Positions 2,128 through 58,330 of a stretch of DNA of 64,000 nucleotides are shown piece by piece (the stretch's first letter is position 1; each line of letters starts with the position of its first letter). Location: positions 10,168,001 through 10,232,000 of the forward strand of contig CM069174.1 of assembly GCA_035221665.1 (NCBI GenBank), written 5' to 3'. Under the pieces are notes generated by a model that was given only the letters and a program-made list of their open reading frames with translations, did not search any database and was not told where the DNA came from. Made by a program: the position numbers and the translations under genes. Origin of the DNA: Okamejei kenojei. Lineage: Eukaryota.

Positions 2128-2859
2128 TTTCAGGTTGACACCCTTCAGTCTGAAGAAGGGTCCCGACCCAAAACATCACCTATCCATGTTCTCCAGAGAT
2201 GCTGCCCGATCCGCTAAATTACTCCAACACTTTATGTCTTTTTCGGGGAGAATATATATTAGGAGGATAAGGTGAACCTGGCTGTGAAACATTTGGCCTA
2301 ATCCAGTGTCTGGACACGTTCAGTAAACAGCAACCACTCGATCGAGGCTGCAGAAAGCAGCTGCTGGCTGTGGTCCTCTGCCAGTTAGGCACAAGGCCTG
2401 CTGCCCTGACACTGAGCTCCAGTTTGTAAAGATTTACAGACCCGACTCAAAATGACAAGCAGCTTAAAATATGGAGCGGCATTGTTCTGTTTTGTTTCAA
2501 TAAGTTCTCATGATGTATGCACAGCACGTACTCTGAAAGGGTTGAATTTGCAAATTCATAGTCCTGGACCTCAGTCAATAAATATCAAAAGATAGCGCAG
2601 TCCTGAAAACTTGCTTTCTTTGGAAAATGACGGCATCTGAATTGCTGATGAGCACACTTAGCAGGTGAGACCACCTTCCTACCACCACCACAAGCTCAAA
2701 ATACTGTCTATATCCTAATATTGAGCACTGGGGAGACCCATGAAGCCCATCAGGAGATTTTGTGTAGGAAGGAACTGCAGCTGCTGGTTTAAACCGAAGA
2801 TAACACAAAAAGCTGGAGTAACTCAGCGGGAGAAGCAGCATCTCTAGTGAAAATTAATA

Positions 2860-2893
2860 GGTGACGTTTCGGGTCGAGACCCTTCTTCAGACT
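2860..2893 (-). ncRNA. Minimal hammerhead ribozyme motif (intact core) in a Penelope-derived tail
   Basis: The - strand reads AGU CUGAAGA A GGGU-CUCG-ACCC GAAA CGUC ACC. Confidence 0.6.
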
Positions 2894-3279
2894 GAGAGTC
2901 AAGGGAAAGGGAAACAAGCAGATTTTGTTCTGTCCACAACAGCTACTCAGTCTCTCAGCATCAGCGCTCAATCCCTTCTCTGTCTAGAACTGTATGGAGC
3001 TGCCTGTTGGACCCATTGAACAATCGTTTTCATCCATTACTCTACCCCCATTTGTATAATGTCTAATCTCACATGTCGCAATGTAATTTCTAACTTCATG
3101 TGGCTAACAAATCCAATGATAAAGTTTAAATCTGCCGCTCACAGTAGCTTGTGGGCAGCGGTGAACAAATACAGATCAGGTACTTGCCGTGTGGGTTTTT
3201 GGGCAGACCCCAGATTTGCCGCATAGAGGTTAGCAACTGGCAAAAACAGCCCCCCGATGGGACCGGTGCTTCAACTCAC

Positions 3280-3392
3280 CAGTAGCTCGTCCATGCTCGT
3301 ATTGCATTTCTCCAGGTTGATTCTCTTTATCGCCACCCGCTCATTTTTGGGTTTGCAGAGAGCCGCCTGTACCACGGCAGTAGCCCCGCAGC
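3280..3392 (-). CDS. STK39: STK39-like kinase coding exon 2 ([38 protein letters not shown])
   Basis: Acceptor ...ctcactacAG at 3393-3394 and donor GTGAGT at 3274-3279. 113 bp, phase 1 to 0. Contains the Gly-rich loop and the VAIK lysine. AALCKP is SPAK-like rather than OSR1-like (AAYCAP). Not present in the ORF track. Confidence 0.93.
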
Positions 3393-5471: not shown

Positions 5472-5970
5472 GGGTGGTGCAGCAGTAGAGTTGCTGCCTC
5501 ACAGCACCAGACACCCAGGATCAATCCTGACCACGGGTGCTGTCTGTACGAAGTCTGTATGTTCTCCCCGTGACCTACATGGGTTTTCTACAGGCGTTTC
5601 GGTTTCCTCCCACAATCTAAATACGTACAGGTTTGAAGTTACATAGACATAGAAACATAGAAACATAGAAATTAGGTGCAGGAGTAGGCCATTCAGCCCT
5701 TCGAGCCTGCACCGCCATTCAATATGATCATGGCTGATCATCCAACTCAGTATCCCGTACCTGCCTTCTCTCCATACCCTCTGATCCCCTTAGCCACAAG
5801 GGCCACATCCAACTCACTCTTAAATATAGCAAAGTTAAATAAGTTAATTGGCTTGGTAAAATTGCAAATTGTCCCTAGTATGTGTGTGGGATAGTGTTAG
5901 TGAATGAGGATCGCTTGTCGGCGCAGACTCAGTGGGCTGAAGGGCCTGTGTCCACGCTGAATCTCTAAAC
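5472..5970 (+). mobile_element. HE1-like V-SINE interrupted by an antisense CR1 3' fragment (about 5640-5830)
   Basis: SINE head and core (GGTTTCCTCCCACA), then an (ACATAGAA)n-tailed CR1 piece, then the SINE resumes. Confidence 0.75.
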
Positions 5971-8900
5971 CTTTGTAAACTTTAACGATTTAACGTAGCA
6001 TTACTTTTCTCACTTCTGAGTCCACAGGCTCTGTTTCCCTTCAGTCCAGCATGCCCGTTGTCACTCTCAAAAGCAATTGAAGCATGGTGCGAAGTGGCCC
6101 AGTAGTCAGCCCCCTGCAGCAGCAGGCACTCCCTCATTGATCCAAAGGCAGGTTCTGAACCTGCCTTTGCGTCAGCCATGACCTTGGTTCTTCTGACCAT
6201 GGTTCAGTGATGTCCCTTTCTCACTCTGCTGGCAATCAGCATCCACCTGCAGGCTCTGAAGTCTCACCTGAAGTCTCCTAATTGCTGTAAGTACCATTGC
6301 AAAGTGACAACCAGTCAGGTGGACAACAGTTCCTGCTGATGCTGTTGGTTCTCCACCTGTCTTTAGAAAGGGAAGGAAGGATACGGAATCCCTCCATTTA
6401 CCTCAAAGGAAGGGAGTTTTGCAAGTCATCTTGGCGCTCCAAGGCAGACCGTCACATTTCAGCAGTTCCTTGTTGTTCCTACATTAGTGCCGGAATAATC
6501 CGTTGACCCAGATATGGCACTCACTGCATGTCAATATGGACCAGTCATCAGTATAACCAACGTGATTTCCCCACCAGCCACACTCAGGATCCCTGCAGTC
6601 AAGTGGGTTCTAGTTGCTGATTTGTACGTACCCCCGAGTTTCACTCTAAAGATAGTTGAGCATTCAGGGTCCAACATCCAGGCTGTTACGTTCCCCCTCA
6701 TCCACTCTCCCTAAATCCTAAAATGTTTCTGCTCTCCATCCCAGTGCCGACAGTCTTCCACCCACAATGTTGACTATGTTTCTCTTCCCACAGATGCCGC
6801 CTGACCTGCTGCACGTTTCCCTAATTTTCTGTTTTTATGTTAGATTGCCAGCATCTGCTGATTTTCTTTTGATTTTCACAGTCTGGATTTGGAGACCATC
6901 ATCAGAGAGTACTTGGTTTTGGATTACAATATTCAAACCTTTAGTCACAGACTCCTTTAGTCATGTAGTTCATGGAAAACAAAGCTCAGCATGTTGTGCG
7001 CACGCACACACACTCACATACTGGCTGCCTCTCCAGACAGGTTTTATTTTACCTTGTTCTAGTTACTTCAAACCCCTTAATCATTTGTTCACTTCCCTCT
7101 GGACTCCCGATTCATGGGTTGTCACCTTCTCCCCAAGCAACGATAAACCATTCTACATTTCCTTGAGCAGTGTCTGCTTTGATCTGTCGTTTTCATGCCT
7201 TGCTCTTTCATATCTCTAGACTCCCTCTCCCCTGACTCTCGGTCTGAAGAAGGGTCTCGACCTGAAATGACACCCATTCCTTCTCTCCAGTGATGCTGCC
7301 TGTCCCGCTGAATTACTCCAGCATTTTGTGTCTATCTTCGATGTAAACCAGCATCTGCAGTTCCTTCCTACACAGAACAGCATTTGCTGTCTTTGTGAAA
7401 AACAATAAGGTTGTGAAGAGTATCGTGTCCAGAGTACTGAATTCTCCAGCATGACTCAGCACCTTGAGCAAGGAACAGAAGTGTTTAAATGCCTCATTCT
7501 TAATGTTGTATAAACATTGTTGTAATAAAGGTAATAGACCCCAGGCAGACTCTTATAATTGAGTTTCCTCCTGGTAAGGGCCAGGCCACAGATTATGTTA
7601 TCTGTTTTGTTTAGTCACTGTTCGTGATGGCCCAGTGCTCAGCTGTGAATAAAGATGCTTCCAATCATTTTCACTTCACGTGGTCCTTTTTAAAATCTTG
7701 GCAGCAGACAAGGAGCTGCATATTTACAATCAGCCACTGCTCAGAGTTACTATGCCGCTCGTCACCACTCTACATAATAAAGGGCTCTCAGAATCCTTTT
7801 CCTTGCTAAACAGATTTGAAGACTGGAACTGTTCTGAGAAAAGGTCATCGGAATGAACCATTAACTGTTTTCTCTCTCCACAGATGCTGTCTTAAAAAGC
7901 ATTTCCAGGAGTTTGTTTTCATGTTATTTTGATACAGGAACCGTCAAATCTCCACAAATGCTGCCTGACCTGCCACATCCTTCCAGCATTTTCCTTTCTC
8001 TATTCCATTCACCACCAATATTCCCTGCAATGTATTATTCACACATTCCATCATTCACCTACATCAGGGGAAATTTAACTCTATCCATTTTTTTATTTTG
8101 CTACACAGTGCATGCTAGTCTCTCAGAATTAGCGGGCAGGTCTCCACCTAATATATTGATTGAGCTGTTTGGCAGATCTCAAGGATCGAGGCTGAGAAAA
8201 AGTAGGGTCTTGACCCGAAACGTCACCTATTCCTTTTCTCCAAAGATGCTGCCTGACCCCCTGTGTTACTCAAGCTTTTTGTCCCTATCTTCGGTCTGCT
8301 TCATGGTTGTGTCGCCACAGCCCACACCAACCTCCTTTCTGCGCAAAACAGCAGTAAAACTGTGCATCTTTTGCAAAATATTCTCTAAAAATACAAGAAC
8401 GTTTGTAAAAAATCAACTGCTAGTAGAAAGAAATAATGGAAAGATAATTGCTGATTGCTTTTGACTCTATTGTTAACTAGACACGCACTACCCCCTGCTC
8501 TAAATAGTTCCCAGATATGAAGTTAGAAAAGGAGTCTGCCAATGTGGCAATTCATAGGATGTGTGCAAAAAGTGCTTCAAATGTACAGTGGTAACCTGGC
8601 ACCTGCAAAAAAATTAAAAGGTTTTAACAGACTTGGGTTTTAGATGGTGACCAACCCATTATGCGTATCAATACATTAAAAAAAAAAATCCTGTTTCCAC
8701 TGCACCCAATTACATTTTGATAGACATCTACCTTCCATTCTGTGGGATGAGGCTGTTGCAAACCTGGTGCTGCTATGGTTCAAGTGTCAGAAGCATTTGG
8801 GCACATGGGGATTATTGCTGCCCAGTGAATTGTAAGCTGTAGTGAGCTTGGAGTCTTGATCTTCCAACACAGGTACTTAGATAAGAAAGGCATAGAGAAA

Positions 8901-9715
8901 TACAGGCCTAATATAAGCAAATACGATTAGTGAAGATAGGCCATAGGTGTTACATATACACAGGAGACGGGTGTTGAAATATCAAGACGTTAAACTTAGT
9001 ACAGTTCACTATTCACTAGGCAGTACTTGTGACATTTGATGTCTCAGTAAGTGTCTCAGTGACAGAATAAAAGCCTGTAATTTTACAATGGACATGTTTG
9101 AGTTTAGTACATGAAGGCTTATTGCTCTTGCTTTCCTGTTGAGACTTTTTAAAAATCTACTTCTCTTACCCGTATTTGTCAGCTGTTTCTTTTTTATAGT
9201 ACTTTGCTGTAAGACATATAGAGAAAACAAAATACAGAAGTAATGAAAGTGTTTCTCAATTTTATTTCTCTACATTGTTACTTGAGGGCATGCAAGGTTT
9301 TCTGCCAGAGGATAGACACAAAATGCTGGAGTAACTCAGTGGGACAGTTGCATTTCTGGATAGAAGGAATGGGTGACGACAGGAGCATTTGAGCCTGTTC
9401 AGCCATTCATTTGGATGATGGCTGACCTGTTATCTCACTCCATACAGCTGCCCTCTTCACCATATCCCTTAGTAGTTTTGATTAACAAAAATCTCTGTCT
9501 GTCTCAGATTTAAAATCATCAATTGACTTGGCATCAGCTGCTATTTGTAGCAGGTAGTTACAGATTTCTACATGTCTGTCAAACGATTTCAAACCACACC
9601 CCCCCAAACTCTGGCCGCTCGTCCCTGACCTTTGGGAAGGGTGTCAAATGATCCCCGTTCACTCTTTTTTGTGTGCTTATTTCCTCGTAATTTAACCCTC
9701 CTAGTCAGGTGTCAA

Positions 9716-10160
9716 CTTCTCTACATCGGTGAGACCAAGCGCAGGCTGGGCGATCGTTTCACTGAACATCTCCACTCAGTCCGTATGAACCAACCATGAT
9801 CACCTGGTTGCTCAGCACTTCAACTCCCCCTCCCATTCCCAATCTGACCTTTCTGCCCTGGGCCTCCTCCATTGTCAGAGTGAGGCCCAGCGCTAATTGG
9901 AGGAGCAGCACCTCATATTTTGCTTGGGTAGTTTACACCCCAGCGGTATGAACATTGACTTCAGATAGCCCTTGCTTTCTCTCTCCATCCCCTTCCCCTT
10001 CCCAGTTCTCCCACTAGTCTTACTGTCTCCGACTACATTCTATCTTTGTCCTGCCCCCTCCCCTGACATCAGTCTGAAGGGTCTCAACCCGAAACGTTGG
10101 CCATTCCTTTTCTCCAGAGATGCTGCCTCACCTGCTGAGTTACTCCAACATTTTGTCTAC
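9716..10160 (+). mobile_element. Penelope-like element 3' fragment (GIY-YIG endonuclease plus tail)
   Basis: Translates as YIGETKRRLGDRFTEHLHSV...VAQHFNS...LEEQHLIFCLGSLHPSGMN and ends in the hammerhead-bearing tail. Confidence 0.85.
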
Positions 10161-13159
10161 CATCACTCTAACCATATATAACCATATAACAATTACAGCA
10201 CGGAAACAGGCCCTCTCGGCCCTTCCAGTCCGTGCCGACCATTTGTTTTCCCCTAGTCCCATCTACCTGCACTCAGACCATACCCCTCCATTCCCTTCAC
10301 GTCCATATACCTATCCACTTTAGTCTTAAATGTTAAAATCGATCCTGCCTCCACCACTTCTGCTGGAAGCTCATTCCACACAGCCACCACCCTCTAGTCA
10401 GTTTACCCTTCCTAATGAGTGGTGTCCACAACTGTTCATAGTATTCCACTGGGAATATAATGAGGGCTATGTATAAATATTGAAAAGAGACCACTGTAGT
10501 GGCCTATGTTGCAATAACTACCTTCCTTCCACATAAAACAGTTCTGATATGTTTCTCAATCTTGACTGGGTGCTATTATACTTGTAAATCCATTTCCTGG
10601 GTACTTATTTAATGTACTAATTCAATTTACAGACACTTTTTTTCTCAAGCTGCTTTTCCTTCCTGTGCGTTTTTATGTGTTTTCCTCTCATATGTTCCTT
10701 TGCAGATTTATTTGGTTCCCCTTTTGGCCGTACTACTGGCAAATGCTTCAAACTCCCTCTCGTTCCCTCCCCGGCACCAGCCCTCGGGCTCTTTTCAGCA
10801 GACTACATTAAAGTGGGGAAAAGAACGATTTAAAAATAGTCAAATATGGACATTTTTTAAAAAGGACGGCAACTGGATACCAGAATGTTGAGACCAATGA
10901 AAGATCGCATTGCAAAATCACAATGGATGACGTGCTGCAACAGGGGTCAGACAATTCCATCTTTGCAAACAAAGCTGTGGCGTGGGGAAGAGGGAAGGTG
11001 TAATCCAATCCGCTAATGTTTTCAGTCCAAATCTGCTTTTACCCAAAGAGGAAACATTCTCCATTCAAACTTTGAAAGTTAATAACATCAGATAAAATCA
11101 GTCCTTTCTAGTGCATTTTTGGGAAATCACTACCATCACTCTTTTCTTCATCGCTTACAACAGAATTTAGATTACTAATGAATTATTCATAAATTTTGTT
11201 TTACCTGCCAAAATTAAGTGGTGATTGATGGCACCCATGGAGCAGTCATGTTGATGTATAACACAGGAGAAACAGTGATACAGCTAGCATTGAAACCTTC
11301 AAATCTCCACAATGATTGGCTGTGCAACACAGTTATATAGCATGAAACAGAGAGCTCGTGGGCAAGTTCTCAAGAATCATCTGGCACTTGTTCAAATCGA
11401 CCAGGGGATCCTCTTTTAGATTAACCATTTTCACTTGTAGTTTCTGATCAGCATTTTTATGGACTGCAGTGCACACACCTGCATACAGATACCCATGAAT
11501 AGATTGATAGGCTCTCTGACATCCATTCTGAGCACCCGCACACAAATTACAACGCAGAAAAGAGGCTATTTAATCAACCAGTGCACACCACTGTTTACGG
11601 TATTTACTAATAGTAATCATAAATTCCACCAAATTCCTACACTATCAACCACTCTAACGATCAGTGATACTATCATAAATCATATTACAATCCAGAACTG
11701 AATGGCTGTCTTCTTGACGTAAGATTCCCACACCTGATTGCTATCTCAACAACACTTGCTGTTAAGTGTAGTTGAGTGGGTATTAATTTGAAGAATCTGT
11801 TGACACTGGCAAGGCACATGTACCATGTCTGCGGTGCCGATAGGCTGCAAGCTCCTGTGAAACTGTGCCTTTGCCCTGAAACAAGGAACGAAAGTGGGCT
11901 CAAAACTGGAAGATTTTAAAAAAACATACAAAATTTCACTTTGCGGGTTACTGATCAATATTGTGCAGAGCGCTGCAAAAGGTACAGTACCAAAACACTC
12001 CACACACGGCCATGTTGAGCCTAATCACTTTCTTACTAATTGGGGATAGAGGAGATTTATGATGACATACAATGCAAATTAATTAAAAGAAAGTATTTTC
12101 TATCCTTATTTTTAAATGCATTGATTTTTTCAAATATAAATTTATGGCTCATAAATTGCAGATTATGGTGAGACCAACAATGCTTTGTGTTCTGTCAGCA
12201 CCCCCTCGCCCACCCACACCAACTTGCAAAATAAGAATGTAATCCATTTTATGTTCTTCCTGAAAGAGACTCGGACTCAGCACTTTGGCAATTCCACTTA
12301 CGCACCAGTGGCTAGCAGAGGCTGTGGGCAAAGGTCCTTCTTTGCATGTTTGAACTGATAGTAATCATCAAAAGAATTAAAAAGGGAGACTGTGACATTT
12401 TCTTTACAAAAAGGGGCTTTAGAAAGAGGAACTTTCTGTCACAAACTATTGTTGAAATGAAGTACATTTTTTTCCTCATATAAAGGGAATTGCTTGATAA
12501 AGAATATTAATGGAAATCAGGAGTGAGCAGGAGAGTGGGATCAGGCTAAATGGGGAAACAGAGAACTGTTTTAAATCGGACAAATTGCTGCTGTCAAGAC
12601 TCTAGATTACTTTGCTGTCCTTCTCCATAGCATAATGATGGCATAAAAAGACACAAAGTGCTGGAGTAACTCAGCAGGTCAGCCAGCATTTCTGGAGAGC
12701 ATGGATAGGTGACGTTTTGGGTCAGGACTCTTTCTCAGACCCGAGATGCTGCCTGACCGGCTGAGTTACTCCAGCATTTTGTGTCTTTTTGTTTTGCAAT
12801 TCCTTGCATCTAAATAATTATGCCAACTGGATTGCTGGATTGGCATCTGCATTTCAGTATATTTCTATGGGGGAATAACATTCTTTTGTAAAAACAATAC
12901 AGCGCAGAAGTAAGTCATGAACAAAGAGCAGAAGGAGCACACAACCTGCCAAACTTTGTCCATCATTTATGAATCTAGTATCAATCGCTAGATACAACAC
13001 AACACAATAATCCATGTACAAGAGGAAAAGAGTAAATGGTGTAGTTTCCAAATATTATTTTGCTCCAACATGCATAAAGTAAATGTATAGCTGTTGTAAG
13101 TGGGTGCAGTCCCTTCCCAAGTGCTTCGGTGTTGACATGTTCAACACAGATTTAGAAAC

Positions 13160-13397
13160 ATAGAGACAAAATGCTAGAGTGATTCTGCGGGTCAGGCAGC
13201 ATCTCCGGAGAAAATTGATTGGTGACATTTCGGGTTGGGAACCTTCTTCAGGTCTGAAGAAGGGTCCAGACCCAAAATGTCACCTATTAATTTTGGTCTG
13301 AAGATGGGTCCGGACCAGAAACGTCACCTATCCATTTTCTCCAGAGATGCTGCCTGATCCGCTGAGTTACTCCAGTCCTTTTGCGTAAACCAGCATC
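13160..13397. repeat. Fold-back element made of two inverted Penelope tails with three hammerhead-like motifs
   Basis: One - strand copy at 13221-13251 and two + strand copies at 13251-13284 and 13295-13328. The outer arms are mutually complementary. Confidence 0.75.
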
Positions 13398-15501
13398 AAG
13401 ACTTTGTTGTTATTACAGATTTGGAAGATCCTGGCATTAGCCTGTGTTGAGCTCACTGATCGCATTTGTAATGATGGTAATGGCCAACCTTACAATTAAC
13501 GCTCACGTCTCTAAGATAAGGAAAACCAGGATTCCATTCCCAGTCCAGGATCAGATCTGGCTGAAAAGCTCATTTAGTGTCTGACTCATAGGAAAGTACT
13601 GGACTTGGCTGTGATACCCTCCAGTGTACAATAGCTATCTGTACCTGCATTCCCAATCAACCAATGGTGAAAGACAGTTTTAAACATTAATCTCACCCAT
13701 GTAAACTGGAAGTACCAGGACCAATACCTGTCCCGTACCAGGTAAACTGATCTCAGCCTGAGCAGCAAATGGGCACGCAAATTGGTATCAGCATCCACGG
13801 ACTAGTGAGAGTGCAACCCACACTCCATTCCCACCTCTGGCTGATAGTCAAAGCCTCTTGCATATTGGAGGAGGAGAAATGTGGGTTTGGCTAAAACTTG
13901 GTTGTAATTTTCCCTCTCCACAGCCTTCTTAAACTTCACAACTGACATTATAGTAAAGAATACCTCAGTGCAAAGAAACCCACCCTCAGCCTGGGTCAGA
14001 ATCTTTCAGAGACAAGTAGTGAAAGGAACTGAAAATTGAATGTATTGATTTTGATCTGAGGCCCAATATGAGGCTTTATCCAGCTTTGTGCAAAATCATG
14101 CTGACACGCTACAGGGTGAAGTCACTGGTAGTGGCTAGTCTCTGGCAGACTTAATTGGCTTCTGAAGAGGTCTGGAGAAACCTGCTCCGAAACCCGTCAG
14201 CTGTGTGAAACATTTCACACAGAAGATAGATCCATTAAACTGTCCAAGCTTCCATAATCTACTATTTTTACTCAACAGTTTTATTTTAGAGACAGGTTTA
14301 CAATTGTGCCACGATAGACATATTCACCTGTCCAATTATGCCACCGACCAAACCACTGCATTTTCTTACAGTTTTAACAGTACAGGTGAGGTGGCACTAC
14401 ACCTGATTTTTTTTTTGTACAGCTCTCTCGAACACGCCAAGAGATTCATTCTGCTGGGATCCAGTAGCGCTATCATATCTGATATATAAAACAAGTCTGA
14501 AGAACAATATCAGGTCAGTGTTCAGTAATGAGGAGGGTCCTAACCAGACGCAATACTGTTACTATCCAAAGTGAAACTGTATAGTGAACGCAGGTCCATT
14601 GTCACTTTGCAACTATTCCACCTGAGGACACCCAATATAATACAAAACAGCTTTTGAAACTGTGATTCTTTAGTCTGCAGAGCTGGTAATGAAATAAACC
14701 TTACCTCCGAATTAAGATGTTGTTAATCATAAACATTGGATGCCAACAATTACATAGAAAATGACAAATGCAATAAAACAAGGTCTGAACACTAAGAAAG
14801 TGTGTTGGTACCAAGTTAAGTTAACTCTTTTATGAGGGAAAAAGAGACAAGGGGTTAGATTTTACAAACAAGGACCTCAGATGCTAGTTTATGCAAAAGG
14901 ACACAAAGTCCTGGAGGAGCTCAGCAGGCCAGGCAGCATCTCTGTGCCCCAAGGGGTTAGATTATTTGTTCTTCCATGGTGGCAATTTAAATCCCCGTCA
15001 CATTTTGTATCATGCATTCCTGATCTCAAATTAAAGAATCAACAATCTTATAGTACGGAATGAGGCCATTCAGTCCATCAAATCTGTGCTGGCTCGCTAT
15101 TGGAGTTGTCCATTTCCATCCACTTGTTCTTGCCTCATTTACTTTTTTTATATTTTTGTTCATAAACTTTCAATTGCTTTTCAAACTTCTCTGCGACAGT
15201 AGCTACATGTGGCAAACTGTTCCACGTCCTGACAACTCGCTGTGTGCAAAGAAATTATCGCCTGAAGAAGAAAGTTCGACAACTCTGAGGCCGCGGCCCC
15301 TTCTTCACCGATTCACCAACGAGTACAAACAATCTCTCCCTTTTCACTTTCCCAGAAGCTTTTAACGTCGTTCTGCCTCATGCAAATTTGCCGTAAGACC
15401 ACCTGACCCCACCCCCCTAACCCTGATGACTTACTTTGTGATTTATATAAATACTTACGTTTCGTATGGTGGCGGGCATCAGCTGCTATTTCACTATGTG
15501 C

Positions 15502-15513
15502 ATATATATATAC

Positions 15514-15555
<42 letters not shown>
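15502..15555. repeat. (TA)n microsatellite
   Basis: Direct reading of the sequence. Confidence 0.95.
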
Positions 15556-15562
<7 letters not shown>

Positions 15563-16672: not shown

Positions 16673-17667
16673 TGTAAGTGAGACGTGAGTGAGTGCCCGC
16701 CGTGTTGAAGCGAGATAAGAATAATGGGGGAACATTATCACTCCCTTGTTTTATTTCCTGGTCTTTGCAGCAAAGCATCAGCGGCAGAGGGAAGCGTTTT
16801 GTTGTTGTCCGGCGTCCCTTGGTTTCTAGGGTGACGGAAGGGGATATTGAAACGTCAAACATCTACCTCTAGCCCCGGGCAGGCAGTTGCTCCCGGGAAG
16901 GCAGGTGGTTGGCATTTCCAAACGGAAATCGTTCTGTCGGTCAGGGCCACCCGTCCTGCCCCTGGGATCACGATCATTCCCCTCCTCCCCGTTTCCCCAA
17001 CCAATCTAACGGACCAAGCACATTGGCAGGAACTCAGCACCACTCTGAATATTCAAAGCCATCGGTGCGGGGCCTGGAACAGGTGCAAGTGTCCCCTGTC
17101 CAAACTTACACCTACATAGAGACCAGACGCGAAACTCACCCATTAGTGTTTAAAAAAAATCACAAGTACAAGATAGCCTTGCAAAAGGGTCCCGACCCGA
17201 AACGTCACCTAGCCATGTTCTCTTGACTCGCTGAGTTACTCAAGTTCTTTATGTCCTTTTGGGTAAGCCAGCATCTGCAGTTCCTTGTTTCTACATCTAG
17301 CTAGTCTTGCATTTCTGTAGAAGCAGCAGATATCTATTTAAGAAAGGCTTCAAGGAAAAGTCTTGGAATTACAGACCTGTAAGCCTCACAACTATGGTGG
17401 ATATGTGACTGGAAAGGCTTCTGAGAGACAAGGTCTACATGCATTTGAAAGGTGAGGGCAGAAAAGGGATAGTCAGCATGGCTTTGTGCCAGGTTCATTT
17501 TCATTTAGATTTCGAAGTATTTGCAGTGATTTGATTTCCATTGAAATAATATAGGTCCTCCCCAGGTTACAAACTCCTGACTAACGTACAACGTGTACAA
17601 ATGAGCGAGTGTTTAAGAGACCGGTGGAATGGATTTGCCAATCACTGCGGAACTGCAGGCTTCTTTA

Positions 17668-28320: not shown

Positions 28321-28324
28321 TTAA

Positions 28325-37124: not shown

Positions 37125-37610
37125 AGGTTGCCAAACATTTTCATTCCGCTTCCCATTCCCACACTGACCTTTCTGTCCTAGGCCTTCTCCATTGTCAGAA
37201 TGAGGCCAAATGCAAATTGGAGGGACAGCATCTCATATTTCCCTTGGGCAGTTTACACCCCAGTGGTATGACTATTGATTTATCTAACTTCAAGTAACCC
37301 CTGCATTCCCTCTCTTTCCATCCCTCCCCCACCAACGTCTTACCAGCTTCAAAGACTTGTTGAGTCTCATTGTCTGTACTGATTCTCACCTTTGATATGC
37401 AAACAGCTAACAATGCCCTGTTTCCTTTATCATAGTTACTTTTTTGCATATCTTTCATTCATTTGTTCTATATCTCTCAACATCACTGTCTATATCTCTC
37501 ATTTCCCTTTCCCCTGACTCTCAGTCTGAAGAAGGGTCTCTGCCCAAAACGTCATCTATTCCTTTTCCCCAGAGATGCTGTCTGACCTGCTGAGTTACTC
37601 CATCTTTTTG
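37125..37610 (+). mobile_element. Penelope-like element 3' fragment
   Basis: VAKHFHS...LEGQHLIFPLGSLHPSGMTID plus the shared tail. Confidence 0.8.
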
Positions 37611-40600
37611 TGAGTCTTTGCCTGGCTTGACTTGTTGGGAAATTATAAACGGCACAGGAAAATAAAGAATTAGGAGAAAATATTAGAACATGGATGAAAC
37701 ACTCGCTTGTGTTTGATGATCCATGAACTGCAATCACATGTTGTAAACAAGAAACGAGCAATGATAAAAGTGCAATATTGTCATGTAAAAGGCAAAGGTA
37801 ACAGTCCAACAGCTTTGTAATTACAGCACTAAGTGCTTTATAATATATAAGGGAAAGTAAAGAATCTGATTTATTCCACTAAATTTCCTGAGCTGTTATC
37901 AGCAGTACAGAGGAGCTGGCTTATCACTTTCCTATTTTGCAGAATTGTAAATACAGGTCATTGATTCTCAAACACTGCATTGTTGAACGAATAAATATTT
38001 AATCATTTTATAGATATTAAATGCCTTGCCTAAACTTGGGTATACCTCAATTACAGTGCATGGGAGCAGGCCTTGTTGATCAACATCCCTGTTGTAGGAT
38101 GTGGGTGTTGTATCATGGGGACTTTTTTTTGCTCACCTTTTCTGCCCTGTGCTTGTGTTAAGACTATGCTGAGGGTATTATTGTAATAGTGGTTGGAGTT
38201 ACTAAACTAAACTAATATTTAGAGGTGTGGGCTATTATTTCTGAAAGACACAAATATGTATAGCATGTCAGTTCAAAGATTGAAATTCAAATAATTGGGA
38301 TTTTTTGGGGAAATAAAAAAACTGTCACTTGCAACCACTGGAAGTAAAGGAAGTAAACTGAGTTTATATGTGACTCCAGGCCCACTGTTTAATGGAAGAA
38401 ATGAGGAGAGAGCTGGAAGAGACTATTACCATGTCCATGGGTCCAAAGGAAGGTTAGTTGACTTGAGGGGCCAGGGAATATATCCTAGATATTTGGACCC
38501 TGTAGCGAACACAGGAGTTCTTTGCATAGATGTTTATAAAGCATGGCTTGTATGTGTTTGGATGACCTGATTGGCTGTGAAGTGCAAGAGACATTTCTGG
38601 TTTCTAGAAGCAATATGCGATTGTCCAGAAAATCTACCAACCTGGCACCACTGAAGTCCCATGGGTGCCAGATTAACGAGTCTTGCTATATTTAGCTTCT
38701 ATTGTTTGCATTGAAGGTGAGGACAACTTGTATTAAAATTGGATGCAATGCATTGGTAGAGCAGAGTCATGTAGGGTTTGTAGGTTTGAAAAGGAACTTT
38801 CCTCTGGTGCCTTTCGTGACACTGCTGTCTCCGTACTTTCCAAGCAGTGATGAAGTACTTTGGTAGTGTACTCACTGTAGTGTAGGAAATTTTCACTTTG
38901 CAAGCTCCCATGGATAAGAATGTGATTCTGAGAAGGTATCACATCTGCCTTTAAGTGATGGTTGATTTGAAGAATAAATGTTGGCCCCAGGGTATTAAAG
39001 GTGGGTTAGACATTGACACAAAGATTTTAATTGATGTATGTTTTGAGGTGTAAACAAGTGTCGGCCACATAGAACTCTGTTGTGTATTTGTACCAAAACT
39101 AACATGGTAACGTTAAATTATTTGTATAATTAATGAGCTGGAAAAGCATTAGTACTTTACTTGGTGTTTTGTCCCACATTTCCTCTACAAGTTTGTCATT
39201 ATTTTGAATACTCCCTTCCTTAAAACAGTTTATCTTGTGAAGGACGGGGTGAGCTTTGGTTGCCGCAGGTTCTTATGTATGCACCTGGGCCTTTGCATTG
39301 CAGCTCCACGGTCACTGTTAATATTCTCTGGTGTGAACTGCTGCTGGCTTGCAGCGGATCCTAAGCCTTGGATACTCTGGTACTGTTGATGTTGGAAGAG
39401 GTGCAGAGCGGTCTAAAACTAAGCAATACCATTGTCTTCATTTTCCCAGTGATGGTGGGTCACTACTTGTTGCGGAGGTGGTGGGGAAACAGCTTGTTGC
39501 TTGGAGTTAGAACTGAGAAACAATCAAGTGCTATAAACATTGGAAAAATATGCAGAGACCGCAAGAAAATAGGAGGATTGGGGCATTCAATATGATAATT
39601 GACCACACGGTCAGAGAAAAATGTACAAACTCTGTACCCGGGTCTCTGGTGCTGTGAGGTACAACTCTTCCACTGCTCCACTGAGATGAGAATTTCTGCC
39701 TTCATCACCTTTTCAGGCAGCACGTTATTGATCCCCCTCCACTGTCTGAGTGGGAGGAAAGAAAACATCCTTATCTCTAGCGACTACATTCCATGTACAC
39801 CCCCCTGATTTCTCACCCCACTGCTAAGGGAAATATGTCTTTCGTACTTAATCTGTCATGGTTTCTTGTAATTTAATACAGCACAATTAAGTCTCCTCTT
39901 GGTTTCCTCCGTAAACTATGCTTGTTTTCTATGGAACAATCACTCCTTGTAACTATGTTTGAGTCTTGGCAATATTTTTACATCCTCTCCCGTGTGGTAA
40001 TATCTTCTCCCTAATGTGATGACTGAAATGTGCATAGTTCTCAAGCTATTGCCAAACTAGTGTTGTTTACAGTTCTAGCATAACCAGCCTGCTTTTGTGT
40101 TCTATGCATTGGCTGATGAAAGGAAAGCAAGTACTGTCCTATGTTCTCTGACCACACCATCTTTGCAGTCTAAAGCTTTCCTCTTCACTATATTCCTCTT
40201 CACTATTAACTGCATTGGTTAGGCAGATTTAAATTCTTGGATTGTTTTCTCTGGCAGATCGGACGTTGAGGGGTGACTTGATAGACATTTATAATACTGT
40301 AAAGAGAGGCATAGAAAGGAAAGATGGTCAGAACCTTTTTCGAGGATTCAAATACTAGTGCATAGCTTTAAAGGGGGCAAATTTAAAGGAATTGGAGGTC
40401 TGTTTGGGTATGTTTTTAAATTGACCCAACCTTAAGCAGTCTGAGCCAGAAGACTTATAATTGTTACCATACCTCATTAGACCATCACCAAGTCTAACAA
40501 CCTCTATGTTGCTGGTCTGTCTGAGGATGGAGTACCAAGTATTTATGAACAGAGGCCACATGGGCAATACCTAAATAAATCATCCTGGTCCAGATACAAA

Positions 40601-49278: not shown

Positions 49279-49503
49279 GTACGGCTTTTATTCCACTGTT
49301 ATTGGATCTATGATTGTGCCTGTTTAAATTTACTTGAGCCCTACTGCTCAGAGTTCCTTGTTCATCATAAATGTTTGCTGAGATTTTGTATTATCAGCAA
49401 TTTTTTTTTTTTTTTTAATGAGATTGCAGAGGCTTTGAGTGAACACCTCCTTGTTCCACTTGCCACTCTCCCTTTTTTATAAAAAGAGATTGCTAGTTAT
49501 TGT

Positions 49504-50370
49504 AGGTAGACAAAAATGCTGGAGAAACTCAGCGGGTGAGACAGCATCTATGGAGCGAAGGAAATAGGCAACGTTTCGGGTCGAGACCCTTCTTCAGACT
49601 GATGTGAGGATGGGGGGGGGGGGCAGGAGGAAGAGGTGGAGCCAGAGGGCTGAGGGAGAGCTGAGAAGGGGAGGTGAAAGTAGGGACTACCTGAAATTCA
49701 AGAAGTCAATGTTCATACCGCTGGGGTGCAAACTTCCCAAGCGAAATATGAGGTGCTGCTCCTCCAATTTACGTTAGTCCTCACTCTGGCCATTGAGGAG
49801 GCCCAGGACAGAAAGGTCGGATTCGGAATGGGTGAACCTCTGCCGCACCTGGAAAGACTGCTTGGGTCCTTGAATGGAGTCAAGGGGGGAGGTAAAGCGA
49901 CAAGTGTAGCATTTCCTGCGGTTGCTGGGGAAAGTGCCCGGACAAGGGGTGGTTCGGGTGGGAATGGAAGAATTGAGCAGGGAGTTATGAAGGGTGCGGT
50001 CTCTGTGGAAAGCGGACAGGGGAGGAGATGGGAAGATGTGGCAAGTGGTGGGATCGCGTTGGAGGTGGCGAAAATGGCAGAGGATTATTTGTTGTATGTG
50101 ACGACTGGTAGGGTGGAAGGTGAGGACAAGGGGGACTCTGCCCTTGTTATGAGTGGGGGGGATGGGGAGTGAGAGCAGAGTCACTGGGTATAGAGGAGAC
50201 CCTGGTGAGAGCCTCATCGATAATAGAAGAGGGGAACCCCCTTTCCCTGAAGAATGAGGACACCTCCGATGCCCTGGTGTGGAACACCTCATCCTGGGTG
50301 CAGATGCGGCGTAGACGGAGGAATAGGGGATGGAGTCCTTACAGGAAGCAAGGTGGGAAGAAGTGTAGTA
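49504..50370 (-). mobile_element. Penelope-like element fragment (RT C-terminus/linker and tail with intact hammerhead motif)
   Basis: SSHLASCKDSIPYS, RVPLVLTFHP, RKCYTC linker. The GIY-YIG core is deleted at about 49830. The tail matches other copies. Confidence 0.85.
49568..49600 (-). ncRNA. Minimal hammerhead ribozyme motif (intact core)
   Basis: The - strand reads AGU CUGAAGA A GGGU-CUCG-ACCC GAAA CGUU GC. Confidence 0.55.
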
Positions 50371-53300
50371 TAAATCGGTAGTACTGATTTGGCATTTTCC
50401 ATAATAGTTTATCAAAACGTAGACTGCTGTGATTTATTTTCCCACTTTGCCAACCGCCCTTCTGAAGAATTTTAAGTATAATGTTAAATATAATAATGGG
50501 ATTTTTCTTGCTTCCATAATTTTAGAATGAATTTAATGGTTAGTGTTTGTTTGATGTGTGAATATACTTTTTATTGTGTATTTTGTCTTCATGTAATACT
50601 CTCCCACTAACTCAACACAAGAGTGAGATTCCTGCTAATAGGAATAGAATTTGCCCTTAACTGTGTCCACTAGTTTATGGTGACTGAATAAGCGAACACC
50701 GATCATTCTTCCATGGGATTCTACATTTTCTGCTGAGATTTCCGGGTCATGATTCCAGGTTCCAACCCAAATGCAGCAAGGGCCACACTGACCGGGACCA
50801 AATACAAAACTGCCCCCCGGTCACTGTAGTACTTGGTAGTGAGCTTGCCTTGTGTTTCATTGGTGCAAACGCACCACCAAGCCTTTTTTTAAAGCCATTC
50901 AGTTTGTACTGCTAAGGATAGAAAATCACCATGGCGGCATTGGCAACTGGTGGCAATGGCGGCGCAGCAATAACTAGCCTAGAGCAGCGGCGGCAGAGCA
51001 CAAGTGGCAAGGGGCATGTCGCAATGGCAGCAGCAGCAGTGCATGAGCAGCAATAGTCACATTTGGCTTCTACTGTCGACATATTTTTGTTTTGGTTGCA
51101 AATAAGAAATTCCTGCAAGACTTAACCCATTGATGTCAGCTTGTACATTCTTTATTTGTGTCGTGTTGAAACCATGTCCATACTTCACAGCAAGAGTAGC
51201 GCTGACCTACCACTAAAACATTTTATCCATGCTGACCCATATTAGTGAGCTTTCGCCCCAGGTATTTTGAAAACCTTTTGTAGCTTTGCTAAAGAAACCA
51301 CCCAGGAGGAGATACTTCAGCCCATTGTACCTTTACTCGCACTTTAAGGGAAAACTCTTTCAAAGACCTGGCACAAGGGTCTCATCCATCATTGCATCAA
51401 TCGGTCCCATTCCACTGCTCTTTCCCTCCATTTCTTTCCACCTTCTCGTACTTATCCAATTTTAAATTGTTATTACTGAATCTGCTTCCACTGTGTTCGT
51501 CAGTCAATGTTTTCCAAGTAATAACTATCCCTGCCCACTCCAACTACCTATATTAAGCATGTAATATCGGTTTTTGTTATTCCTCCGAAAACAAATCACA
51601 TAACATTTCTTCATTGCATTCTTGTCTCTACTTGGCCATTTTACCAATCCATGCCCTCTGAAGAACACCCAATGATAGTATAGCCTGTGCGGTCTTTAAA
51701 ACCAGTACATCTGTGTCTCCTTGATCAGTGTAATAAATGAGGAACTATTTCGTGATGGGGCCCACCTCCTCTGATTTATACTGTAAATGGCTGTCTTCTG
51801 GAAACCCAGTTGCCACTTGTGACGGGACGGCAAGTCGGGTGTAATCCGTGTCCTCCTGTTGCTCAAGCAAGAACACTGACATAGCCTTGTGGGCAGGAAC
51901 GGGAAAGTTGCGAATGTCGCAAAATCTCCGTTCTGCATTTCATGGCTGGTTGCAAAACTGCAAAATGAGGAAGGAGAATAGCAGAATCTTTTTGGAACGT
52001 CTTGGACGGCCATGAATCTTGTAGAGCCACAAACCAAACGATCATCCTTCCATAACGAGCAGCTTGATCCGTCTGCATGGTGACTCTTGAATTCTGGCCA
52101 GAAACCCATCTTAGAGTCATACAGCTTGGAAACCAGCCCTCCGGCTAGGCCCATTTGCCCCATATCCCTCTAAACTTTTCCCATCAATGTCCGGATCTAC
52201 ATTGGTGCTATTTGATTTAATAAGTGGCCAAATGATATCCAGTATATCAGCAGGAATCTTGGAGTTCCGTGGAACAAAAGTGGAAATGAACTTACTCAGT
52301 CACCGTATGCCAATGGCTCTAATTGTAAATGGGTGGTCTTCTGTTCCCCTCTCCCATCGCTACCCACAAGATTCCAGAAGATAACGGAATTAGACTTCTT
52401 CAGTCATGTTCTTTAGGAGCCTTTCTATGATGGCCACTTGGGCAAAGTACTAGCACTTGCTGGGCTCTGCTTCAGAGGTGAAGGCAACTTTCTTGGGGTG
52501 GCGACAACCTTCGGGCCAGTTTTTGGCCCAGTGTCACCTGTGGTCTTCTAAGACATTCCAAATAGATTGTGTAGCACATGCCATCAGCGTTCCTCGTTTA
52601 ATGGTGGAACAGGTCGAGTCCGTGTATTGATACTGTGCCTATAGAGTCTTCTCATGAGGTTGAACATCTAACTCGGGGCATGCATTTATTTATTAAACAT
52701 GTTGTTGATCACTGGGAGCAAGATTTCAAATCTTCACTTGCTGCACTTCCCAATAAAGCTGAAAAATGAATTTGTTCCTTTCTGTAGGCCCTTGAAACAT
52801 TACACTAATTCCTTTGGTGGTCTGGTGGAGGTCTAGCTCATCTGAGTGACTTCCAAATAGTTGCGAGTGAACCCTATTCACTTCTGGATGGCAGATATTA
52901 TTTCCCATACGTTATAATTGAGCGTGGTCTTAAATATGATGAGGAGAGGTGGGGCTGGGGTAGGAAAGCTGACTCCCTAATCACTGCAGAAGGGTTTTGA
53001 CCCGAAACGTTGCCTATTTCCTTCGCTCCATAGGTGGTGCTGCACTCGCTGAGTTTCTCCAGCATTTTTGTGTACCTTCCCTAATCACACCCTAGCTTTC
53101 ATATGCTGATCCTTGATAAAAAAATGTAGTGCCTTTCCAAATCGTGAAGCTGTTTGTTTTGAGATTCCCTGAAGGCTTAATGCTGGGTAGCTGCCCAGTT
53201 TCCCAGCCCTTGGCCGATGCAATTCCACAACCCCTCCTCTGGCAAGGAAACAAATGGCTCGGATAGTATAGTTTCCTGCTGTTGTTTTCTCTCCACCTTA

Positions 53301-55311: not shown

Positions 55312-55369
55312 GTGGAGACTTGCATTTTATTTCTATATATTCTTCTATGGAGTGAGATTTCTATGGAAG
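55312..55369 (+). CDS. CERS5: Ceramide synthase coding exon 4 (WRLAFYFYIFFYGVRFLWK), start of the TLC domain
   Basis: tttgcAG acceptor and GTAAGT donor at 55370. 58 bp, completes the split Met codon AT|G from exon 3. Confidence 0.9.
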
Positions 55370-57795
55370 GTAAGTGTTTGTCTGTACGTGAGTGTATGTG
55401 CAAAACCTCCGTCAAAAAGTAGTGTGGTTACTAATTCTTCCTTTGGGTGAGATGGTTGAAGGTCTACCGAAAGACTGATGTAGAATTATCAGATGTGCAG
55501 AGTAGACAGCACTCTGAAATAAGTGCCATTAACGGAACTCTATTACTTCATTGTAAACCCAATTGAGGTGAAGATATACTTCACTTTGCATTGTTCTGCG
55601 TTTACAGTGCAGAAATAAGGTTGGGGGTTGGGAGGGTGGTTGGGTTTCCTGTGCATTCAAGTTTTGTTTTAATGAAAAATCAGTTGCATTTATCTACCAA
55701 CTTTCATTGCCTCGGGATGCCCCAAAATGCTTTACAAGTGCTGAGCAGGTAGTCTCAACACCCAGTTTAAGCGCAGCAAGCTCCTACAAACAGCGCAGCA
55801 AATGTATGGCAAATATTATAAACAGGTGGAGAATATAATCAGGAGAACTTGTACATCTATCAACTGGTGCCACAATATTTTACTTTAACCTAGCAGAGTG
55901 TACGCGTCCCTGGCTTGACATCTGCAGTGTTTACCTAGGTTTCTTCTACTCTTGTCCCTGGAGTGGTGCCTAAATTTATGCCCTGTGTGATCTGAGTAGA
56001 GGGCACCACCATGGGATTGACTTGCCTTGTTTGATAAGTGTCCTCTGAATGGCCGCATAGAGTAAATGAGGTGTATAGAGTGATGCTATTGTGCTGCAAT
56101 TACAAGGATCTATTCCTGCTGGCCTCTTTAAACATTTGTGGTGACTCACGGCTCGCCTCATTCTTCCCAAAGTATTTACTTTATGCAACCAGTGAGGTGT
56201 GCCTTTACAGCAAGATATTTATTAGCGGTGATTTTATTGTGTAGCTGCAATTACTTTACGCTTGCATAGTCCCACGAGCACAATGATCAGTGGTCGGCTG
56301 TGGCGTCTTTCCAAAGAATCGTGGGTGACTTATTTACCTTTACAGAAGATAATGGCCTCAATTGTACCCTGTTTGCCTCTCGGCTCATCTTGTTGTACTT
56401 ATTCCCCTTTTCTCTGTTACAGGTGCTATTCTGTTAGTTTTGGGTTGAATTCAAAAAGACTCCCAATACTATGAATAGACTCAGAATTTTTTTGATGTTA
56501 AAGTACACCAAGGATTTATTACAGAACCTGCTCCACTCCATCAGTTAAAGAACCAAAACTTTAAAGTGCCTTGGTTCTCCCTCATCACATAATTATAGGT
56601 TTAAGGTGAAGGGGAAAAGATTTCATAGGGATCTGAGGGGTAACTTTTTCACACAAACGGGGGTGGGTGTATGGAACGAGCTGCCAGAGGAGGTAGTTGA
56701 GGCTGGGTTTAAGAAGCAATTACATGGGCACATGGATAGGACGGGTTTGGAGGGATATGGACCAAACGCTGGTTGGACTAGTGCAACTGAGATAGGTTGG
56801 CCGGTGTGGACAAGTTGGGCCGAAAGGCCTGTTTCCACACTGCATGGCTCCATCCTAATCGGAGTCTGAAGAAGGGCCACAACCCGAAACATCACCTATC
56901 CATGTTCTCCAGGGATGCTGCCTGACCCACTGAGTTACGCCGGCACTTTGTGCTTTTTTGTAAACCAGCATCTGCAGTTTCTTTGTGTCCTCAATCCACT
57001 GTGCTGCATTTAAGCCCACTTGATGTACTCCACCACTCTTTGGTGGTGGTGCTGCTTCATTCATCTCCCCATCCCACGCTCCAGGATGCAGGGCTTGAAT
57101 TTTCGGTTTCTCCTGAGCAATTGAACTTCTGTGAATACAGTTAATTACTGAAAACGTTACTTTCACGGGCAGCTGTTTCAAATGGGCTTCCTGCTGAGTC
57201 ATGTGCATCTTCCTCTATGCCAACTGACTGGCACATGGGAGGTCGAATGAAAAATTCTTCCTGTTCCTCCACCCAAAAACCATTAACCAAAATTCTCTCT
57301 CAGAATATGAGTCCCAGTGCTATCTGGCTGCTCTTATTTTGCATAAATCAAGGGACTCCATACCAAACGTGAAACTGTTGGTGCTGTTATATTCAGGGGT
57401 TTTGGCTGGTGGAAGGAACCAGTACATCATTCCAGAGGTTGCTCTCAAAGTAATCTCGCAGCTTTGCATTGTTTGTGACAGTGGGGCAGCATCTTCATCA
57501 ATGATAGTGAAAGGTGGTCCTGTTAAAGTTCCTGTTCAAGATGCACTGCTCCACTGTCTGCTGTCATCTTACTCCCGGGCTTGGTATTAAATTGCACTAA
57601 GGGGTGTGAAGTTCCTGCACTCTCAGCAGAGGTACTAACCAAGCACAACACAGAGATCAGATCAGTTCAAGGCTAAGTATAATTTTATGATACGATAGAA
57701 CTTTATTTATCCCAGGAGGGAAATTGATCTACCAACAGTCAAAACAGAAAATACAGGAAACAAAATTAAAGTGACGAGTGGAAAGGATTGGGGAT

Positions 57796-57870
57796 GGGGG
57801 GGGGGGGGGGGGGTGGGGGGGGGGGGGGGGAAGAGAGAAGAGAGAGGGGGGAGAGAGAGAGAGAGAGAGG
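57796..57870. repeat. Poly-G/(GA)n tract
   Basis: Direct reading of the sequence. Confidence 0.9.
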
Positions 57871-57974
57871 TCAGTCCAACCCACGACAGAAGGGGAGGAA
57901 TGGTACAGTTTGATAACCAGAGGCTGATAAGTGCTAATTACTTTTAACTTTAGCTAAAGTTAATTACTTTAGCA

Positions 57975-58330
57975 CTTTAACTCCCCCTCCCATTCCTAAT
58001 CTGACCTTTCTGTCCTGGGCCTCCCCATTGTCAGAGTGAGGCCCAGCGCAAATTGGAGGAGCAGCATCTCGTATTTTGCTTGGGTAGCTTACACCCCAGC
58101 GGAATGAACATTGACGTCTCCAACTTCAAATAGCCCTTGCTTTCCCTCTCTCTCCATCTCCTCCCCCTTCCCAGTTCTCCCACCAGTCTTACTGTCTCCA
58201 ATTAAATTCTATCTGTCCCGCCCACTCCCCTGACATCAGTCTGAAGAAGGGTCTCAATTCGAAACATCACCCATTCCTTCTCTCCAGAGATGCTGCCTGT
58301 CCCACTGAGTTACTCCAGCATTTTGTGTCT
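57975..58330 (+). mobile_element. Penelope-like element 3' fragment
   Basis: Close match to 9818-10160. Confidence 0.8.

Follow-up and report, generated by a model that had tools for sequence, protein, structure and literature searches.

Hammerhead-bearing repeats in a cartilaginous-fish locus

A 64,000-nucleotide stretch of Okamejei kenojei DNA (assembly GCA_035221665.1, contig CM069174.1, positions 10,168,001 to 10,232,000 of the forward strand), hereafter the window, holds a dense family of short repeats built around a hammerhead-ribozyme-like motif. These repeats are probably dead-on-arrival copies of the 3' end, the pseudo-long terminal repeat (pLTR), of a Neptune-type Penelope-like element (PLE), and the motif is probably the minimal type I hammerhead of that element. 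The order of the element is the end of the open reading frame (ORF), a pyrimidine-rich untranslated region (UTR), the hammerhead, and the tail. The young family occupies 3,838 bp (6.0% of the window), at a density of approximately one copy per 4 kb.

Census of the hammerhead module

A preliminary description of the window had listed about 16 module copies, and the module or a decayed form of it is present at all 16 positions. One additional inverted copy, with its head at 2148-, raises the number of motif-bearing copies to 17, beside which there is an older sister family. Motif-bearing copies are mostly designated here by the position of C3 (the first core base) and the strand; the minus-strand positions given earlier are the low ends of the motifs, and the corresponding C3 positions are 2890, 12738, 13251, and 49597.

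A profile built from 15 copies found these 15 again at E-values of 4e-19 or better and the sixteenth (13254+) at 6e-10. It added four tail-only copies (9378-, 12740+, 14944-, and 35733-) and weaker pieces of the older family, and the same search of the reversed window gave nothing below E 1.4. The inverted head at 2148- was weak in the profile (E 0.8) and was confirmed by blastn (E 0.002) and by its junction. A covariance model from 15 copies gave 18 matches at 33-62 bits, 15 of them expected by construction, with the next match at 12 bits or less. A descriptor for the core plus helix II hit 6 sites, against a mean of 0.075 (maximum 2) in 200 dinucleotide-resampled windows. The common tail, previously put at roughly 60 nt, is present and somewhat longer, with approximately 65 nt past the cleavage site and approximately 100 nt where a 3' extension is present. 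All five loops listed earlier occur, together with six others. The term "very large family", in contrast, was an extrapolation from one window. The copies of the young family are as follows.

1768..1823, -, 3' part (tail and 3' extension) of the inverted partner of 2150+, separated from its head by approximately 300 bp of other repeats
2126..2148, -, inverted copy's head, decayed and facing 2150+ head-to-head; absent from the earlier list
2149..2245, +, short copy starting at the motif edge, motif 2150-2177, G12>A, short 3' end
2760..2916, -, complete core with a GUC site, motif 2863-2890, helix I of 2 bp, long 3' end; flanking repeat of 12 bp with 1 mismatch; sense within kinase intron 2
7205..7374, +, copy with approximately 40 nt of upstream UTR, decayed motif 7244-7271 (U16.1 lost), long 3' end
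8204..8295, +, short copy beginning within box 1 (about +7)
9310..9378, -, tail-only copy starting approximately 4 nt ahead of the cleavage site
9703..10161, +, copy with a GIY-YIG C-terminal remnant interrupted by a frameshift and a stop; motif 10074-10098, with 3 nt deleted from box 1
12645..12741, -, short copy, motif 12711-12738, damaged box 1, G12>A
12743..12812, +, tail-only inverted partner of 12738-
13160..13251, -, short copy, motif 13224-13251, head-to-head with 13254+
13252..13397, +, same-strand tandem of two 44-bp units and then the tail; motifs 13254-13281 (G12>A) and 13298-13325 (C11.1>A)
14868..14944, -, tail-only copy, long 3' end, exact flanking repeat of 14 bp
17185..17295, +, short copy starting within box 1 (about +6), long 3' end, tail lacking 12 nt
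20998..21097, +, short copy with an AUC site and a broken palindrome, motif 20999-21026
37122..37612, +, copy with a GIY-YIG C-terminal remnant (to 37294), longer UTR, motif 37526-37553, G12>A
49504..50375, -, longest copy, with reverse transcriptase (RT) thumb, linker, and internally deleted GIY-YIG at 49690-50375; complete core with a GUU site, motif 49570-49597
52984..53077, +, short copy starting exactly at C3, A6>C, exact target-site duplication of 10-11 bp; subfamily of 49597-
56863..56988, +, short copy, motif 56866-56893, long 3' end
57972..58331, +, copy with a GIY-YIG C-terminal remnant, motif 58241-58268

The motif and the published hammerhead

In the consensus of the motif, a CUGAAGA box and an extra A precede helix II, which has 4 bp and a 4-nt loop; GAAA, CG, and U follow, and position 17 is C or U. 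The earlier identification of a hammerhead core is borne out, as this consensus equals that of the PLE minimal hammerheads in the text and Fig. S3 of Cervera and De la Pena (2014, PMC4209133), namely CUGANGA, an extra base, G10.1-C11.1, GAAA, a palindromic 15.2-16.2, and NUH. CUGAAGA boxes, U17 sites, and helices I of 2-3 bp all occur among the hammerheads of that figure.

The CUGANGA box with one extra base is in the consensus, and the box is intact in 11 of the 17 copies. Helix II has 4 bp (published range 3-7) and is closed by G10.1-C11.1; each single pair is of the consensus form in 14 of the 16 young copies, and it is the only consensus helix returned by RNAalifold. GAAA is kept in 13 of the 17 copies and the 15.2-16.2 palindrome in 9, the losses being mostly CpG transitions. 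Helix I has 2 bp where CAGU precedes the core, as in the coding-linked subfamily, and 3-4 bp in four copies of the GGU type. The published descriptor (PMC4209133, Fig. S7), which we re-implemented, demands at least 3 bp in helix I; in the same source, 2-bp helices I are listed for Drosophila and Culex. When the descriptor was relaxed to 2 bp, 6 copies passed (shuffle means of 0.005 for 3 bp and 0.025 for 2 bp). On the features tested, the motif is by its sequence one of the PLE minimal hammerheads, its helix I being at the lower limit of length and its catalytic activity predicted.

In the folds of 12 copies at two lengths, the pairing probability of helix I was 0.03 or lower in all 24, and the core box paired with the downstream pyrimidine tract at a probability of at least 0.5 in 16. 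Six sequences representing monomers, the tail, and the tandem folded no better than their shuffles (z-scores of -0.53 to +0.9), and the tail hairpin had no two-sided change in the alignment. The preliminary description had noted that the loop varies and the GGGT/ACCC stem is mostly kept. This pattern is not evidence of structure, and the loop variation is largely due to CpG decay: 26 of the 31 changed module CpG dinucleotides became TG, CA, or TA, including all four losses of G12, and no helix II pair was changed on both sides among the 16 young copies. When three old heads were added, one G-C to A-U change appeared in helix II.

The old heads belong to a sister family with a CUGAU-type box, an AGGU/ACCU helix II, a 5-nt loop, and a U-rich 5' arm of helix I. 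It shares the tail and the 3' extension with the young family. It differs from the young family at N7 and in the loop, and in three of three copies its closing pair has gone from G-C to A-U; the pairing has been kept. Its pieces are listed below.

6758-6880, +, older-family piece
7830-7992, +, older-family piece, with a heavily decayed head at 7830..7892
32926-32990, -, older-family piece
34093-34170, +, older-family piece
36405..36576, inverted head-to-head pair with C3 at 36505- and 36513+, stem II closed by A-U instead of G-C

Decay of the copies and constraint in the source elements

The preliminary description had regarded the inserted copies as ribozyme-bearing. Most of them are dead in this respect, as the core is complete in only 2 of the 17 copies, 2890- (GUC) and 49597- (GUU). 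We compared private and shared changes at non-CpG sites in 16 hand-registered young copies, excluding 2148- and the old copies. Singletons were equally frequent in the core plus helix II (9 of 259 cells, 3.5%) and in the tail (28 of 763, 3.7%; p=1.0), which indicates that the inserted copies decay neutrally and rules out selection on them. Shared variants, in contrast, were found at 0 of 17 sites in the core plus helix II and at 23 of 51 in the tail (p=3e-4). The excess conservation of the core over the tail, asked of this family at the outset, is thus present at the subfamily level and not among private changes. Because the shared changes avoid the core, the constraint acted in the source elements, whose lineages kept the core while the tail and UTR drifted. 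The motif itself served in part to find the copies, and this could have favoured an intact core; the equal singleton rates of core and tail make a large bias of this kind unlikely.

Coding remnants and the identity of the element

Four copies (10071+, 37526+, 49597-, and 58241+) are linked to Penelope coding sequence, as had been proposed and as tblastn confirmed. The remnants lie at 9704-9962, 37106-37294, 49690-50409, and 57973-58130 (best E 4e-42). In all four cases, the module lies approximately 100-230 nt past the end of the remnant, at the GIY-YIG stop region of the ORF, on the same strand. With 154 relatives as queries, the same four regions and one single-query match at 23036-23116 were obtained.

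The frame upstream of 49597- matched four proteins among 999 candidates, all from named chondrichthyans (sharks and a ray), at 43-48% identity. These four relatives have a DKG motif (P0004), YIDD (three of four), a CX4CxxC linker, and a GIY-YIG domain (three of four), and Pfam found RVT_1 and/or GIY-YIG on each of them. The window's own Penelope frames gave no Pfam family for three frames and one weak GIY-YIG match (E 0.038); the protein identity of the element therefore rests on its relatives. The 49597- copy retains the order of RT thumb followed by endonuclease. Its linker is degenerate (the first cysteine is substituted), and a CX2-6CxxC linker is found in 98 of 105 relatives. An internal deletion at 49815-49816 (-) has removed approximately 55 codons spanning the GIY-YIG catalytic motifs from this longest copy.

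According to Craig et al. (2021, PMC8557442), a CX2-5CxxC linker is diagnostic of Neptune or Nematis, and Penelope/Poseidon lack it, and vertebrates are reported to hold Neptune and Poseidon (bioRxiv 10.64898/2026.07.22.740005). Because the linker is present and Nematis is excluded solely by this reported distribution, the element appears to be of the Neptune type, an assignment made from the linker instead of a tree. The tail was also considered as the N-terminus of an ORF and rejected: compared with the first 200 residues of 36 long relatives, it gave nothing better than E 0.15 among the matches listed, and no reading frame is common to all subfamilies.

Anatomy of the insertions

All copies are 5'-truncated. 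Their 3' ends fall into two classes, one near +93 from C3 and the other approximately 35 nt beyond (about +128); the full 3' extension is present in 6 of 20 copies and appears to be partial in two more. Head-to-head inverted pairs occur at 2148/2150, 12738/12740, and 13251/13254, and in the older family at 36505/36513. In the three young pairs the extension is on one arm, clearly in 2148/2150 and partially in the other two. The 2 x 44-bp unit at 13251-13338, with both cores damaged, is the sole same-strand tandem and the only one of 29 tandem-repeat rows in the window that holds the motif. Flanking direct repeats scoring at least 9 were found at 5 of 16 loci, compared with 1.3% of 1500 random pairs. 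This anatomy agrees with the PLE hallmarks given in PMC8557442, that is, 5' truncation, an inverted adjacent copy, and a 30-40-bp tail on one end. A complex 5' junction is seen in 58241+ (57926-57972), where a short inverted target-like piece follows the target duplication.

Position of the 5' ends

The less ordinary feature of the family is that the 5' ends pile up at the front edge of the ribozyme, with none at the cleavage site. Among the 17 motif-bearing copies, 11 start between -4 and +7 of C3, and the other six start at about -26, -39, -269, -371, -404, and -778. With paired arms merged, 8 of 14 events start in this interval. At truncation rates of 0.003-0.005 per nt, taken from flanking stretches, the probability of the events is 1e-8 to 4e-7, and it is 6e-5 at a doubled rate. 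The front-edge boundary recurs in both subclades of the young family and in the older pair. It suggests that either a fixed RNA boundary or a short non-autonomous subfamily begins at the motif edge, because most copies start there. No copy among 21 starts at the cleavage site, the nearest beginning approximately 4 nt before it (9378-), which indicates that the templates were uncleaved.

In the six copies with upstream sequence, a stretch of 62-85% pyrimidine is followed by TCAG (TCGG in one) one base before C3. This arrangement resembles an initiator or a splice acceptor. The TCAG also forms one half of a small palindrome, at which template switching could be promoted. A match to the downstream promoter element at +28..+32 from the A at -3 (4 of 5 positions of the consensus) has an estimated chance of approximately 1/6 and was not counted. 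A possible second stop point is the 5' foot of a weak tail hairpin, where the tail-only copies 12743+, 14944-, and 35733- all have their starts (about +44 to +46).

A possible course of insertion

For PAc, a Poseidon element of Anolis carolinensis, internal RT initiation at two sites, protein-dependent hammerhead cleavage, and insertion of unprocessed RNA with no need for cleavage have been described (Frangieh et al. 2024, PMC11167929). PLE hammerhead monomers were reported to be inactive and multimers to be weak (PMC4209133). By analogy with PAc, the GIY-YIG endonuclease would nick the target, and RT would start internally at either of the two tail sites (about +93 or +128 from C3) and copy uncleaved RNA toward its 5' end. 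Most cDNAs would stop at the front edge of the hammerhead, where the template RNA, started in the pLTR, most likely begins or is spliced; a minority would continue into the UTR and ORF of the upstream unit. Priming from both target strands would produce the head-to-head pairs. In the source element, cleavage by the hammerhead is probably slow, limited to dimers formed through the ACGU palindrome, and aided by the element's protein, as the two studies above suggest, and the dispersed monomers would not cleave.

Several points weigh against the interpretation of the repeats as Neptune-type pLTR copies with a minimal hammerhead. The published descriptor passed only one copy (13298+, off register), because helix I is 2 bp in the coding-linked subfamily, and none of the 11 matches that an Rfam search of the window gave at E up to 10 was to a hammerhead family. 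The covariation was not above that of shuffles, 63 of 500 of which reached the observed score. No full-length element, ORF-flanking tandem or pLTRs, or RT core was found within the window, so the clade had to be assigned from the linker. No clear target-site duplication was found at 11 of the 16 loci, and some of the five flanking repeats do not lie exactly at the ends. The model for RT initiation comes from Poseidon, which is another PLE clade. The 5' offsets were read by eye, and the cause of the 5' boundary has several readings, none of which the window singles out.

Alternative readings of the boundary and the motif

One of these readings, possible though doubtful, is that some short copies form a non-autonomous family, SINE-like (resembling short interspersed nuclear elements) or fold-back, of approximately 100-135 nt, which starts at the hammerhead, descends from separate master copies, and depends on the Neptune protein for mobility in trans. 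The candidate subclade comprises 2150, 12738, 13251, 13254, 13298, 17179, 20999, and 56866. Upstream element sequence is carried by 0 of its 6 events and by 6 of 8 in the other subclade (p about 0.01), 3 of the 6 are inverted pairs, and three of its copies have GGU before C3, which gives a helix I of 3-4 bp. However, the split has a local support of 0.87 on 84 columns, in a tree that preceded two row corrections. Two short copies outside this subclade, 8197+ and 52984+ (the latter being the sister of the long 49597-), share the start, as does the older pair, and the boundary thus recurs independently of the short subclade.

About equally tentative is a second reading, in which the template is a long tandem transcript and the RT stalls or switches template on it, either where the hammerhead is folded or bound by protein or at the TCAG-N-CTGA palindrome immediately ahead of C3; the pile-up would then not mark an RNA end. 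In two young junctions, TCAG and CTGA are separated by 1-2 nt and are self-complementary. Structure-linked stops may exist, because the three tail-only copies start at the foot of the tail hairpin (about +44-46). On the other hand, the predicted structures are weak (z-scores of -0.5 to +0.9 for six sequences), the solo copy with its own target-site duplication (52984+) ends at the same point with no fold-back, and the older pair has a different, 7-nt junction.

We put forward as a conjecture, and do not regard as likely, a more specific form of the pLTR interpretation, in which the insertion ends map the template RNA. The transcript, either of the element or of the 100-135-nt non-autonomous subfamily, would start or be spliced 1-3 nt before the hammerhead. 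RT priming at 5'-proximal sites would then mass-produce, from uncleaved RNA, both mini-elements of hammerhead plus tail and fold-back pairs. The ribozyme would clip a 5' leader of approximately 30 nt; instead of processing tandems to monomers, it would be a protein-gated switch by which RNA is withdrawn from the mobile or translated pool.

It is unlikely that the motif is a hammerhead descendant that is inactive even in the source elements and is kept as a promoter element or protein binding site. Inactivity would agree with the 2-bp helix I of the coding-linked subfamily, the pairing of the core box with the pyrimidine tract in 16 of 24 folds, and the lack of any start at the cleavage site. 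In Anolis, core mutants left insertion unaffected, with no reads ending at the site (PMC11167929), and 8 of 9 Xenopus dimers failed to cleave (bioRxiv 2026.07.22.740005). Nevertheless, the constraint falls on the positions of the catalytic consensus, the older family retains the pairing despite its changes in N7, the loop, and the closing pair, and PLE hammerheads have been published that have a 2-bp helix I or a GUU site (PMC4209133).

The preliminary description had offered 5'-truncated inserts or a retrozyme-like class as alternatives. The anatomy fits the former, whereas a non-LTR retrozyme family spreading via circular RNA is highly improbable and was rejected: retrozymes are reported to be pLTR-derived and to occur in the sole chondrichthyan sampled (bioRxiv 2026.07.22.740005), and one two-motif tandem exists, but there are no tandem units of 150-450 bp, the sole tandem (2 x 44 bp) has two defective cores (13254+ G12>A and 13298+ C11.1>A), the motif is minimal instead of canonical type I, and copies neither begin nor end at the cleavage site.

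Comparison with known elements

Since 2014, hammerheads have been known from PLE terminal repeats, which are scattered as thousands of truncated copies through the genomes of fish, coelacanth, frog, and reptiles, and the central claim is for this reason expected biology. The metazoan PLE hammerheads of PMC4209133 are alike in the box, the helix II closing pair, the palindrome, and the NUH with C or U at 17; they also lie after the endonuclease ORF, mostly as solitary truncated copies, with some close opposite-strand pairs. The closest layout listed there is the Neptune motif of Acropora digitifera (3-bp helix I, 4-bp helix II, and 4-nt loop). The present family differs in that no chondrichthyan appears in the rows of Fig. 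S3 or in Table S1 of that paper, the available parts of which do not describe a 5' pile-up, and in the 2-bp helix I of its coding-linked subfamily, below the descriptor minimum of 3, and its density.

The Neptune-clade PLEs of PMC8557442 share with it a C-terminal GIY-YIG after the RT, a cysteine linker, 5' truncation, an inverted adjacent copy, a 30-40-bp tail at one end, and a partial tandem. PAc is similar in its two classes of 3' ends past the hammerhead and its copies of uncleaved RNA; it differs in belonging to the Poseidon clade, which has no linker, and its ORF starts inside stem II (PMC11167929), whereas no common tail frame exists here. Penelope of Drosophila virilis also has a 2-bp helix I, but a longer helix II and a small helix III insert (PMC4209133). 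Its pLTR has an internal promoter and an intron (PMC2377424) that ends at the 5' side of helix I (PMC4209133). At the equivalent place, six copies in the window have a pyrimidine tract that leads into CAG, or CGG in one copy, one base ahead of C3, a candidate intron or start site. Non-LTR retrozymes (PMC7229834; bioRxiv 10.64898/2026.07.22.740005) are likewise non-coding, hammerhead-bearing, and pLTR-related; they are described as tandem units of 150-450 bp with complete, mostly canonical hammerheads and circular RNAs, in contrast to the dispersed monomers and inverted pairs with minimal, mostly broken cores found here.

Our literature search found no description of this chondrichthyan family or of the 5' pile-up, and the family may already be catalogued in repeat databases. 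A search of a phage collection gave no match. What the window adds is a dense cartilaginous-fish family with a helix I too short for the published descriptor, because of which descriptor-based surveys would undercount it. If its density, extrapolated from one window, held throughout a multi-gigabase genome, there would be 10^5-10^6 copies. The function of PLE hammerheads was called unclear in PMC8557442. If the insertion ends do map the template RNA, the role of these hammerheads would be testable from insertion ends alone, and the 5' end pattern is cheap to test genome-wide.

Host genes and other repeats

The window is cartilaginous-fish genomic DNA; among named proteins, the first exon of ceramide synthase 6 (CerS6) is nearest to those of Scyliorhinus (88%) and Callorhinchus (86%). 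Two host genes, which are divergently oriented, were located.

1450-16185, -, OSR1/SPAK-type kinase gene, with exons near 16185, 3387, and 1530
34530-34700, 44188-44295, 49130-49282, and 55298-55375, +, CerS6 exons (span 34530-55375)

In other vertebrates, STK39 is the neighbour of CERS6. The positions of the kinase and CerS6 exons place 14 of the 16 module copies listed at the outset within introns, 7 sense and 7 antisense to the host gene; for the last two copies, this assumes that CerS6 extends beyond exon 4.

A DIRS-type retrotransposon lies at 25689-29771, in which Pfam recognized a gag-like frame, RT/RNase H frames, and a tyrosine recombinase frame. Its inverted terminal repeats are at 25689-25752 and 29430-29468, with more complementary stretches up to 29771. 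The frames are interrupted and the repeats are 92-97% complementary, suggesting a fairly young element. An endogenous retrovirus remnant at 58951-63509 (-), antisense to and downstream of CerS6 exon 4, is split into several stop-to-stop frames, with gag-like, RNase H, integrase C-terminal, and env frames (Pfam RNase_H, MLVIN_C, and TLV_coat).

The approximately 300 bp of other repeats that interrupt the inverted arm of the 2148/2150 pair, at 1824-2125, have relatives at 5474-5969 and 17732-17932. This insert is later than the Penelope insertion and SINE-like in look. Another abundant repeat, with many 3' fragments, resembles long interspersed nuclear elements (LINEs) in its translated frames. 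The hammerhead copy 56866+ immediately follows the last of the LINE-like 3' fragments, which are listed below.

5649-5833
19725-19966
20258-20720
23004-23269
25037-25462
31657-32522
46362-47110
56595-56853

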